IMG/VR virus record: IMGVR_UViG_638341084_000005
Source of the DNA: a virus
Lineage: Duplodnaviria; Heunggongvirae; Uroviricota; Caudoviricetes
Length of the DNA: 4,683 bases
Direction: 5' to 3' (one strand)
A program made the position numbers and the translations under genes. The notes beneath the pieces were generated by a model, which worked only from the letters and a program-made list of their open reading frames with translations, was not told the DNA's origin and made no database searches. Shown here piece after piece: positions 675 to 1,509 of this stretch (position 1 is the stretch's first letter; every line of letters begins with the position of its first letter).

Positions 675-1429
675 TCACTATTACCAAAGGGCGACTGCTG
701 ACAATCAAGCAGTGGCGCGAAACATACGGACCGGGTAGCAACGTTGTACTGCCAGCAGAAGAAGCGGAAGAACTGGCACGAATTGCACTGGTATCGCTGG
801 AAGCAGAGCCGGTGGCAAAGATTATAGCTCATTACCCATTAGGAGTTGACGTAGGCAAACAAAAGTTCGTACAGGCCATTGGAGAGCTTCCTGACTTTGG
901 CGGATATCTATTTGCCGCCCCGCCAGCGCCGGTAGTGCCGGAAGAAGCAACTCCGGAAAACGTAGAAATGCTCTCTGGCTATGTTTCCACGTACAAATTA
1001 ACCGATAGCGAGCGCGATATTGCTGCCGAAATATGGAACGCCTGCCGCACCGCCATGCTTCAGTCCGGAAACTTTCGGGAAAGCAAGAATTCGTCAACCA
1101 ATAATTTTCGGGAAATCCCGGAAGCGTCAACCAGCTCTCCGGTAACTCCGGCTCTTCTGCCTGGTGGTTTCACCATTGAGGAGGCGAAGGAATTACATGA
1201 AGACCTGGTACGCAGCCACATAAGCAAGGCCTTAAGTGGCGAAAAGATGAAAAAGAAAGATCGCGATGCTGATTTGCGCTGGATTCATGGCGTTATAGTT
1301 CAGGCAGCGTGGTTTGTAAAAGCATCACTGGAGCAGAATGCACTATCGGGCAACTCTCCGGTAACTCCGGATGGTTGGATAAGCTGTAGTGAGCGAATGC
1401 CGGACGACAGGCAGGAGGTGAATCAATGA
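671..1429 (+). CDS. Hypothetical phage protein (252 aa) with an S/T/P/N-rich repeat linker and a DUF551-like C-terminal motif
   Basis: ATGA overlap with the upstream gene and a GAAGGA purine tract upstream. C-terminus ...DGWISCSERMPDDRQEV resembles the start of the DUF551 domain seen in ead/Ea22-like lambdoid proteins (recalled, not searched). Contains in-frame repeats NFRE x2 and SPVTP x2. Confidence 0.6.
   Translation: MITITKGRLLTIKQWRETYGPGSNVVLPAEEAEELARIALVSLEAEPVAKIIAHYPLGVDVGKQKFVQAIGELPDFGGYLFAAPPAPVVPEEATPENVEMLSGYVSTYKLTDSERDIAAEIWNACRTAMLQSGNFRESKNSSTNNFREIPEASTSSPVTPALLPGGFTIEEAKELHEDLVRSHISKALSGEKMKKKDRDADLRWIHGVIVQAAWFVKASLEQNALSGNSPVTPDGWISCSERMPDDRQEVNQ
1135..1151 (+). repeat. 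17-bp direct repeat copy 1 (CTCTCCGGTAACTCCGG)
   Basis: Exact match to 1354-1370, read directly from the sequence. Both copies are in the same reading frame of the 671-1429 ORF and encode SPVTP. Confidence 0.9.
1354..1370 (+). repeat. 17-bp direct repeat copy 2 (CTCTCCGGTAACTCCGG)
   Basis: Exact match to 1135-1151, 219 bp (73 codons) downstream and in frame. Confidence 0.9.
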
Positions 1430-1509
1430 GCTGGCCTGATGCAATCGTAACTCTGGGGGTGGTATTCGCAGCAGCGTTTGTTGTGTTCTCGATTTGTCGA
1501 TGGGGATAA
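1426..1509 (+). CDS. Small hydrophobic peptide, 27 aa (MSWPDAIVTLGVVFAAAFVVFSICRWG), predicted single transmembrane helix
   Basis: Not in the ORF track (too short). Strong SD AGGAGG at 1413-1418, 7 nt before the ATG. The ATG overlaps the upstream stop (ATGA). An 18-residue hydrophobic core is flanked by a W/D N-terminus and an R/W C-terminus. Confidence 0.4.
   Translation: MSWPDAIVTLGVVFAAAFVVFSICRWG

Follow-up and report, generated by a model that had tools for sequence, protein, structure and literature searches.

A conserved 27-codon micro-ORF in the exo-xis array of Escherichia coli prophages: a probable gene for a membrane peptide

Between two annotated genes in the left arm of a lambdoid prophage that is integrated at mlrA (yehV) of Escherichia coli lie 84 nucleotides (nt) that carry no annotation and that read, on the strand of the neighbouring genes, as 27 codons and a stop. 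The prophage arm is contained in a DNA stretch of 4,683 nt, here called the window (IMG/VR record IMGVR_UViG_638341084_000005, a virus of the Caudoviricetes). The locus raises the question whether so small an open reading frame (ORF), referred to below as the micro-ORF, is a gene at all and, if it is, what a peptide of 27 amino acids (aa) might do for a phage. Judged on its sequence and on the sequences of its relatives, it is almost certainly a genuine gene that annotation pipelines have overlooked. The features on which the argument turns are the following (TM, transmembrane):

671-1429, plus strand: upstream coupled ORF of 252 aa, its C-terminus corresponding to positions 1-16 of the 68 of Pfam DUF551
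1413-1418, plus strand: Shine-Dalgarno sequence AGGAGG of the micro-ORF, within the last codons of the ORF at 671-1429
1426-1429, plus strand: ATGA stop-start overlap, read directly (micro-ORF ATG, 1426-1428; TGA of the ORF at 671-1429, 1427-1429)
1426-1509, plus strand: the 27-codon micro-ORF, MSWPDAIVTLGVVFAAAFVVFSICRWG, identified by reading of the sequence, conservation and substitution pattern
1432-1503, plus strand: codons W3-W26, a predicted single TM helix (AlphaFold2, Kyte-Doolittle hydropathy, family alignment)

A sequence-only reading of the window had drawn attention to an AGGAGG placed 7 nt before an ATG that overlaps the upstream stop, and to a translation of 27 aa. These particulars all hold: the spacer, tgaatca, occupies 1419-1425, the frame closes with TAA at 1507-1509, and the DUF4222 gene starts (1514) 4 nt after that stop. 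The closest in-frame stops upstream are at 1387-1389 and 1390-1392, so that there is no start further upstream. The same reading had held that a Shine-Dalgarno sequence together with coupling would be unusual for a chance ORF. In a post-hoc test with 2000 dinucleotide-preserving shuffles, AGGAGG-N5-9-ATG opening an ORF of 20-50 aa arises by chance 0.05 times per window, and the same design with a TM-like peptide 0.0005 times.

Coding signal and conservation

Conservation of the frame was a point at which the proposal could have failed, since it would have to be abandoned if syntenic prophages tolerated frameshifts or stops. The tblastn search that had been suggested finds 27-aa relatives in 933W, VT2-Sakai, Stx2 phages, ArgO145, the virulent Vequintavirinae phage Av-05 and an entry deposited as an Actinobacillus phage, and in each of these the start codon overlaps the stop of the gene before it. 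The same slot is filled in phages YYZ-2008 and PhiR12_1 by MMNWPEAFTAVGVAIAVAFILYSLFRWG and MSWPDAIVTLGMVFAAAFVVYSICRWG, respectively. An unbiased sample is provided by 80 loci that were fetched via the DUF551 protein alone, without reference to the micro-ORF: 26 contain micro-ORF-like DNA, intact at 27 codons in 24, so that the reading frame is kept in syntenic prophages. The two that are not intact have a TGG to TAG change at W3 together with W26C (L146) in one case and an in-frame 12-nt deletion in the other. Decayed alleles of this sort are rare; another, P0020, has lost its ATG, with Ile replacing Met1, and the gene caller extended its frame upstream to 45 aa.

For analysis of substitutions, a degenerate pattern scan of IMG/VR supplied 128 matches, of which 125 are 27-codon ORFs of the family (56 distinct at the DNA level, 34 as peptides); the pattern fixes W3, P4, E/D5, A6, R25 and W26 and so presupposes an intact frame. 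The Nei-Gojobori ratio of non-synonymous to synonymous substitution rates (dN/dS) for the 56 variants, also a check that had been proposed, is 0.27 in frame versus 0.99 and 2.03 in the other forward frames; omission of the six codons that the pattern fixes brings the in-frame value to 0.33. G11 is encoded by four codons (GGA, GGG, GGC and GGT) and R25 by five (CGN and AGA). When the 56 sequences are joined in a minimum spanning tree, 99 single-nucleotide codon changes are synonymous and 70 non-synonymous, where a synonymous share of 25% is expected (excess p = 2.5e-20), and the replacements that do occur are conservative, with a mean BLOSUM62 score of +0.47. Comparison of the variants in these ways shows the peptide to be under purifying selection.

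The strand has to be argued separately. The antisense frame that shares its wobble positions with the micro-ORF mirrors the value of 0.27, and dN/dS alone therefore cannot assign the strand; that this frame should be open is to be expected, because it lies opposite a run of hydrophobic codons. It was rejected as the coding frame for its want of a conserved start (the first one in the window opens an ORF of 16 aa that lies outside the region, and in many contexts there is none) and for its radical replacements (mean BLOSUM62 -0.59). Two further antisense ORFs of the window, of 83 and 30 aa, lie over the region in frames that are interrupted by stops in 41 and 15 of the 56 variants. The sense frame has a universal ATG, a ribosome-binding site, a fixed length and stop, and the strand of all of its neighbours. 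Taking these comparisons together, we hold with high confidence that the micro-ORF is a real coding gene.

The setting of its start codon is as constant as its frame. All 125 IMG/VR copies start with an ATGA that is preceded, at a distance of 7-12 nt, by a ribosome-binding site of the GGAG type. In 103 of the 125 that TGA closes an upstream ORF of 38 aa or more, and 14 more have a tandem TGATGA end; stop and start thus overlap or abut in about 117 copies of this E. coli branch. In seven of the 125 the upstream gene is broken and the micro-ORF is intact. Where codon 2 specifies Ser it is always AGY (14/14), while Ser22 is always TCR (50/50); the overlapping TGA itself therefore constrains the sequence. 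An ATGA, as found in 125 of 125 copies, and a codon choice bound by the overlap are what termination-reinitiation would be predicted to leave in the sequence.

How far does the conserved unit extend? In 869 pairs of copies that have different genes on both sides, identity is 0.76-0.99 over nt 0-84, from ATG to stop, and 0.30-0.45 in the flanks, where the only peak is the ribosome-binding site (0.78 at -12 to -7); in the block right after the stop it is down to 0.36. Because the peak of identity is restricted to the ribosome-binding site and the ORF, these two are exactly the conserved mobile module, and the alignments show the ribosome-binding site with its 27 codons to be a unit under selection that has been moved between unrelated gene neighbourhoods.

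Distribution, neighbourhoods and relatives

The suspicion that the micro-ORF had been left unannotated is amply justified. RefSeq/PGAP leaves the 84-nt slot empty in a genome that is 100% identical to this part of the window, in YYZ-2008, PhiR12_1 and 933W, and in a P1-like plasmid, and the micro-ORF is unannotated in every sampled row of the E. coli-wide search described below. The exact peptide of the window is absent from a collection of 15 billion proteins, which holds two other peptide variants, from a few GenBank genomes, under the names 'hypothetical protein' or 'bacteriophage protein'. Clustering with 121-aa DUF551 proteins in an exact-sequence search was an artefact, since those sequences do not contain the peptide, and a mis-started version of 45 aa (P0019), used as a homology query, has only three annotated relatives. 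Profile searches of Pfam-A, NCBIfam, PHROGs and PADLOC with the peptide gave nothing above noise, and a profile search of the PDB gave no match at E <= 10. Literature string searches with MTWPEAF and SICRWG found no match, the peptide was not found in the examined part of the supplements of two small-protein surveys (PMC11188072 and PMC5597208), and the exo-xis papers cited below do not mention the micro-ORF in the parts checked.

Among 5426 complete E. coli genomes at least 1007 have the module (102-nt query), in about 1350 copies altogether, with up to four copies per genome and 150 places on plasmids, one of them a 93-kb P1-like plasmid. It is present in the Shiga-toxin phages 933W, VT1-Sakai, VT2-Sakai and Stx2 phages I and II. 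A scan of one genome per species with a strict pattern found it only in Escherichia and Shigella, and in two contigs of less than 450 nt that are probably contamination. The CPS-53 prophage of K-12, which has a related yfdR-yfdS region, contains no copy; the rest of K-12 was not scanned. The copy in the deposited 'Actinobacillus phage vB_Apl-pPE4' (L007; PP818812.1, 1201-1651) specifies a peptide identical to that of the E. coli phage ArgO145, follows a gene whose C-terminus is almost as in ArgO145, and is accompanied in the phage by a hok-family gene, which suggests a recent exchange with an Escherichia phage, or mis-assignment from one.

Genes upstream of the copies have at least four unrelated C-termini, DUF551, EaA-like and '...VEDILR' proteins among them. 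Downstream lie DUF4222 (about 30% of copies), mok/hok approximately 154 nt later, a toxin-antitoxin pair, and others; mok/hok follows about 38% of copies, either directly (at the same distance of ~154 nt) or beyond an ECs_5710-like ORF. The other DUF551 genes of the 80-locus sample have different genes after them, some of these being small, coupled and hydrophobic ORFs: MMPPVKVVIITLVMIVIARIMSGEIGWIW (29 aa) and VMNKCNALLYAMVIGFGLVAGIRVYITWESLINLAWSAIRG (41 aa), which are unrelated to the micro-ORF, directly follow the DUF551 stop in contigs L190, L205-L207 and L183, L185, L186. To judge from these sequences, very small membrane peptides seem to accumulate preferentially in the slot after DUF551.

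The micro-ORF has relatives beyond this branch. We call them the 'WPEAF' family, a grouping that is defined in this analysis, is not curated, and is named for the [S/T/N]-W-P-E/D-A-F/I start of its members. A hidden Markov model profile search of 1.84 billion representative proteins yielded 63 matches, which include E. coli-type sequences, assembly chimeras and relatives of 28-42 aa such as MNITNWPEAFTYIGCAFAIAIIFYSMFRWG, MEISWPEAIMWIGIAFAAALAIYSIMRWGD and MINLLLAETISWPEAFAVVGIAFAAALAFWALFKYGD. A second pattern scan, directed at the distant branch, found small ORFs of the same design in 14 of 14 cases (22-51 aa, most of them 22-37), on viral contigs of as much as 230 kb that are unrelated and whose neighbouring genes have nothing in common. 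When two relatives that were looked up are added to these 14, the upstream stop lies inside an ATGA in 11 of the 16, and the upstream ORFs range from 45 to 489 aa. A tblastn search of phages with P0059 and a blastn search with L228 gave no match; L224 has only weak matches, to Pseudomonas and Ralstonia phage recombinase genes.

The consensus is M-[S/T/N]-W-P-E-A-F-x-x-V-G-x-A-F-A-x-A...[R/K], and the family alignment retains W3, P4, E/D5, A6, G11, A15 and R/K25. Its S/T/N-x-x-E spacing can be read as a capping box for the N-terminus of a helix. The peptide of the window conforms to the family in each respect. The [S/T/N/G]-W-P-[E/D]-A near the start, which all E. coli-branch variants and the distant relatives possess, is here S2-W3-P4-D5-A6. 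The Gly five residues after the motif Ala, the small residues (G11, A13, A15, A17), the hydrophobic run and the basic C-end in 22-42 aa are represented by G11, V13, A15, A17 and R25 in 27 aa. The start codon placed on, or right next to, the stop of an unrelated upstream ORF that is read in the same direction within a phage array is the ATGA at 1426-1429. On these shared features the micro-ORF represents, in E. coli and Shigella, one branch of a larger group of phage micro-proteins that no database curates. To our knowledge the 'WPEAF' family has hitherto not been described; its kind, the unannotated hydrophobic micro-protein of phages and prophages, is well known. As a side observation, a 6-nt repeat is expanded in frame inside the helix of some copies, giving (AM)n or (AV)n (P0031, P0032, P0034 and P0038; for example, MTWPEALTTVGIAMAMAMAMAMAVALVVYSICRWG) and lengthening the TM segment, so that peptides grow from 27 to as many as 35 aa.

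In the window, the remaining genes of the array, all on the strand of the micro-ORF, are:

159-674, plus strand: ORF of 171 aa, first in the array; no match in Pfam or PADLOC
1514-1756, plus strand: DUF4222 gene (Pfam PF13973, E = 8e-14), annotated in RefSeq
1760-1894, plus strand: ORF of 44 aa between DUF4222 and xis, hypothetical in RefSeq; no match in Pfam or PADLOC
1913-2167, plus strand: excisionase gene xis (Pfam DUF1233 excisionase, E = 2e-29), annotated in RefSeq
2201-3487, plus strand: integrase gene int (integrase domains), annotated in RefSeq

The stretch from 1300 to 1650 is 100% identical to many chromosomes of Shiga-toxin-producing, enteropathogenic and O104:H4-related E. coli. 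In the identical region RefSeq lists, in order, Ea22-like genes, a 252-aa 'hypothetical/phage/DUF551' protein, an unannotated gap of 84 nt, DUF4222, a 44-aa protein, excisionase, integrase and mlrA. The micro-ORF thus lies upstream of xis and int and on their strand, inside the exo-xis/ea accessory array. The gene before it (671-1429) is called 'phage protein', 'hypothetical protein' or 'DUF551 domain-containing protein' in RefSeq. Its C-terminal codons (~1375-1426) read PDGWISCSERMPDDRQEVNQ and then stop; relatives read PDGWISCSERMPNDKQYVWCW...HWMPLPEPPQEVNQ and then stop. To judge by this alignment it looks like the product of an in-frame loss of the DUF551 core, with the last codons, which hold the ribosome-binding site and ATGA of the micro-ORF, spared. 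The ERMPDDRQEVNQ ending is found again in at least 12 viral contigs, on upstream ORFs of 170-314 aa. Beyond the integrase gene, mlrA (yehV) is broken twice in the window, by the prophage end at ~3525-3535 and then by an IS66-family element at ~3866. The MerR-type reading frame between them (3526-3866) begins mid-gene, owing to the prophage end; the element has a GTAAGCG terminus and, on the minus strand from 3896 to past the end of the window, a DDE_Tnp_IS66 transposase gene.

Expression, predicted product and rival readings

Consensus scans, which weak promoters could escape, found no sigma-70-like promoter on either strand of the region ~1300-1600, and the micro-ORF, having no promoter of its own in these scans, therefore depends on the transcript of its array. 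No terminator and no Rfam family was found at or around it and the fold is not unusual (z-score 0.15); an explanation in terms of RNA was rejected on these grounds and for the missing promoter. By synteny with lambda, the array would be an early leftward transcript into xis-int, and one study of the exo-xis region describes its expression as belonging to the earliest lytic stages (PMC8614690). Sakai has copies in prophages Sp5, Sp6 and Sp15. Experimental evidence of an indirect kind comes from the Sakai prophage Sp6, in which the micro-ORF (NC_002695.2:1,550,843-1,550,926, MIWPEAFAITGVAIAIDFLVYVICRWG) is ATGA-coupled to ECs_1518 and overlaps, with its last 22 nt, the 5' end of XECs145. That 'novel gene' was reported to be covered by ribosomes in LB medium (RIBOseq reads per kilobase per million (RPKM) 346, ribosome-coverage value (RCV) 4.35, coverage 0.99; PMC5597208), and its 3' part is now annotated as ECs_5710, a TM peptide of 34 aa. 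The Sakai small-gene study took ORFs of 30 aa or more only (PMC5597208), and because of that cut-off the 27-aa ORF of Sp6 could not have been reported there. In Sp6 (L235, 2344-2968) three membrane-peptide genes stand in a row:

L235 2344-2427: the Sp6 micro-ORF, with Asp at position 17
L235 2463-2567: ECs_5710, a TM peptide of 34 aa with a strong ribosome-binding site
L235 2756-2968: mokC/hokC

The sequence-only reading had predicted a single TM helix, and structure prediction concurs. AlphaFold2, run on a 38-residue construct with an alignment of four sequences, gives one helix over construct residues 14-37, that is, W3-W26 of the peptide, with a block-mean predicted local distance difference test score (pLDDT) of 83-96. 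The helix has 24 residues, a length that spans a bilayer with almost nothing left outside, an S-W-P-D cap at its start and R25-W26 at its end. Kyte-Doolittle hydropathy averages 2.63 over the most hydrophobic 19-mer, AIVTLGVVFAAAFVVFSIC, and the grand average of hydropathy (GRAVY) of the full peptide is 1.46. The product is thus very probably, on the model, a single helix inserted in the membrane. D5 and R25 are the only charges in the window copy; an acidic N-side and a basic C-side are clearer in the longer relatives, and this pattern suggests an N-out/C-in topology, in which the acidic N-end would face the periplasm and R25 the cytoplasm. The N-terminal half, W3-A17, is the more strongly conserved.

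The reading that we favour as a whole, and consider on balance the probable one, is of an accessory phage membrane micro-protein that is made by coupled translation and acts by helix packing. Ribosomes ending the ORF at 671-1429 would re-initiate at the ATGA, aided by the AGGAGG, and the peptide would be made whenever the exo-xis/ea accessory array is translated. The bare W3-W26 helix would insert in the inner membrane with its N-end periplasmic and R25 cytoplasmic, and because almost nothing would protrude from the bilayer it could act only within the membrane. There its conserved outer-leaflet half (WPEAF..VG.A.A.A, with small residues at 11, 13, 15 and 17) would pack against itself or against a host inner-membrane protein, and the peptide would be a non-essential modulator of the infected cell, not an autonomous toxin-antitoxin element. 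That it acts by binding a specific membrane partner is a tentative part of this proposal, to which we give rather less than even credence. More doubtful, and offered as speculation, is the extension that the whole family, widespread and not recognised before, is a portable cassette of 'ribosome-binding site plus helix' that in every case uses the stop codon of the gene before it and targets one conserved proteobacterial inner-membrane component through its invariant outer-leaflet half.

Several observations weigh against this reading. The 125 copies are largely closely related and were found with a pattern that fixes six of their residues. The wobble-sharing antisense frame, open in all 56 variants with the same dN/dS of 0.27, is excluded on grounds other than dN/dS only. 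The assignment of topology by charge is weak for the E. coli branch and rests mainly on the longer distant relatives, and the timing of expression is taken from synteny only. A test for a single conserved face of the helix was negative, with no significant moment of conservation near 100 degrees (p = 0.40), and so gives no pointer to a specific binding interface. Some copies have odd changes, such as A17D in Sakai Sp6 and the (AM)n expansions, which suggest that the C-terminal half is loosely constrained.

What else might such a peptide be? That it is toxic or depolarizes the membrane, an idea of the sequence-only reading, would place it with the type I toxins or the holins. Its size, hydrophobicity and prophage location fit, about 38% of copies adjoin a mok/hok locus or another small TM gene, and the small residues at i and i+4 (G11/A15, A13/A17) could aid oligomerization. 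We nevertheless consider it unlikely. The scans found neither a promoter belonging to it nor an antisense promoter or RNA, and the RNA fold is unremarkable; three variants have no Hok, Ldr, TisB or Ibs match in Pfam at E <= 1, and hmmscan of eight distant relatives against Pfam-A at the same threshold turned up no toxin family. A strong ribosome-binding site with coupling amounts to unregulated synthesis along with the operon, unlike known type I toxins; the micro-ORF is not in a lysis cassette, and it persists in a virulent phage as well as in the early arrays of many phages that are unrelated. As a type I toxin it would be one without any regulatory hallmark of its class.

A factor for superinfection exclusion or defence, blocking incoming phage at the inner membrane, would likewise be a membrane-embedded product of temperate phages, and the region neighbouring the Sp6 copy is transcribed and covered by ribosomes in uninduced LB culture. 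We think it improbable: there is no PADLOC match and no promoter of its own was found, the array is early and proximal to xis-int, not near the immunity region, and the family occurs also in virulent and large uncultivated phages. Since the array is, by synteny, an early lytic transcript, an immunity function expressed in the lysogen would not be expected of it.

Stop-start coupling is nearly universal, and the peptide might be a membrane anchor for the protein encoded upstream (Ea22-like/DUF551), either as a coupled subunit or as a fused tail. Nature has made the fusion, in two distinct sequences: an Ead/Ea22-like protein is joined in frame to the micro-ORF peptide in P0043 (206 aa; L233, 156-776) and P0044 (143 aa), across a junction, '...LPPLENKK-MSWPDAFAIVGVAMSIALIVFAIYRWG', that keeps an internal GGAG-N9-ATG; in P0043 a gap of 4 nt separates the stop from DUF4222, just as it does in the window. 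The upstream proteins are unrelated across copies, however, no slippery frameshift site exists at the junction, and the micro-ORF stays intact where the upstream gene is broken, all of which make an anchor a poor prospect.

It is very improbable that the act of translation alone matters and the peptide does not, the 84 nt serving as a ribosome relay to DUF4222 or as a block to Rho-dependent polarity. The tight spacing in the window (ATGA overlap upstream, 4-nt gap downstream) and a possible DUF4222 ribosome-binding site in the GGGGA of the RWG codons would suit such a role. What speaks against it is conservation of the peptide sequence beyond an open frame, retention of the motif in phages with wholly different neighbours, and the placement of the next ORF, which is 120-260 nt away or has its own promoter (hok) in about 40% or more of copies. 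Scarcely credible is the last alternative, that no gene lies on this strand and the frame has arisen by chance in a junction that is conserved but non-coding, or else that an antisense ORF is the source of the signal, for which the open wobble-sharing frame and the antisense ORFs of 83 and 30 aa speak, and against which stand the stops in the frames of those two ORFs, the want of a conserved start and the radical replacements in the open frame, the plus-strand orientation of all neighbours and the lack of an Rfam match or a stable fold.

The micro-ORF matters in the first place as an omission: a gene carried by about a fifth of the complete E. coli genomes and by the reference Shiga-toxin phages, yet absent from RefSeq annotation and from the curated libraries that were searched. 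Its family is unusually well delimited and common in pathogenic E. coli, and it offers a clean, well-supported test case for the annotation of ORFs of fewer than 30 codons. Functional work on the exo-xis/ea region, with its reported effects on lysogenization and prophage induction, has been interpreted without it, and deletions of the 3' ends of Ea22/DUF551 genes also remove its ribosome-binding site and start codon. If the peptide does have a specific membrane target, it would be among the smallest phage effectors known; and if the notion of a portable cassette were true, this would be a common minimal tool with which temperate and virulent phages remodel the function of the host membrane during infection, perhaps to keep out the DNA of competitors or to tune a membrane protease or insertase.

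Comparison with known systems

The class to which the micro-ORF belongs is familiar. Enterobacterial intergenic micro-proteins are unannotated, mostly hydrophobic and under purifying selection (Fesenko et al., PMC11188072), and these, together with the small genes of Sakai (Huecker et al. 2017, PMC5597208), are the same kind of object; its neighbour in Sp6, XECs145/ECs_5710, was itself discovered as one of the novel small genes of Sakai (PMC5597208). The exo-xis region in which it resides has been reported to be active early and to influence the choice between lysis and lysogeny (PMC11323111, PMC8614690, PMC3824215). Kil, CIII, Orf73 and the products of the exo-xis genes are likewise small, non-essential products of the leftward early region. 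They are soluble or amphipathic and have cytoplasmic targets (FtsZ, FtsH, RNA polymerase), whereas the product of the micro-ORF is a predicted integral membrane helix.

Among membrane peptides of the same prophages the obvious comparison is with Hok/Gef (hokW/sokW of 933W; mokC/hokC of Sakai Sp6), likewise small, hydrophobic, single-helix peptides of the inner membrane, and the hok locus of 933W, like that of Sp6, has the micro-ORF directly upstream. Hok/Gef proteins have about 50 aa as against 27; the micro-ORF has no mok leader frame, sok antisense RNA or promoter of its own, its peptide lacks the periplasmic, Cys-containing tail of Hok and does not match Pfam Hok (PF01848), and it would be translated with its operon by stop-start coupling. 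At E <= 1 there was no Pfam match to any of the type I toxin families (Hok/Gef PF01848, Ldr, TisB, Ibs, ShoB), and consensus scans did not find the regulation that goes with them, a cis antisense RNA and an own promoter with a structured leader. Holins and antiholins are encoded in the lysis cassette, beside endolysin and spanin; the micro-ORF is found between Ea22/DUF551-type genes and DUF4222-xis-int and, elsewhere, next to hok or toxin-antitoxin genes.

For the manner of insertion, the coat protein of phage Pf3 is instructive. Single-span, N-out peptides of the Pf3 coat type insert via YidC alone. Pf3 coat resembles the micro-ORF peptide in its short acidic N-tail, one hydrophobic helix and basic and aromatic C-end (...GIRW... 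compared with ...CRWG); there is no homology between the two, and a structural role in the virion is Pf3's only. By analogy, a YidC-type insertion pathway may be inferred for the micro-ORF peptide.

For its action, the nearest precedents are MgtR, AcrZ, KdpF, MgtS and PmrR, peptides of fewer than 50 aa that consist of approximately one TM helix and pack against a larger membrane protein. They differ from the micro-ORF in being chromosomal, in having regulated promoters of their own and known partners, and in showing no sequence kinship to it. Likeness to these small regulators, a bare helix that would find its function by packing within the membrane, is our preferred working model for the micro-ORF peptide.

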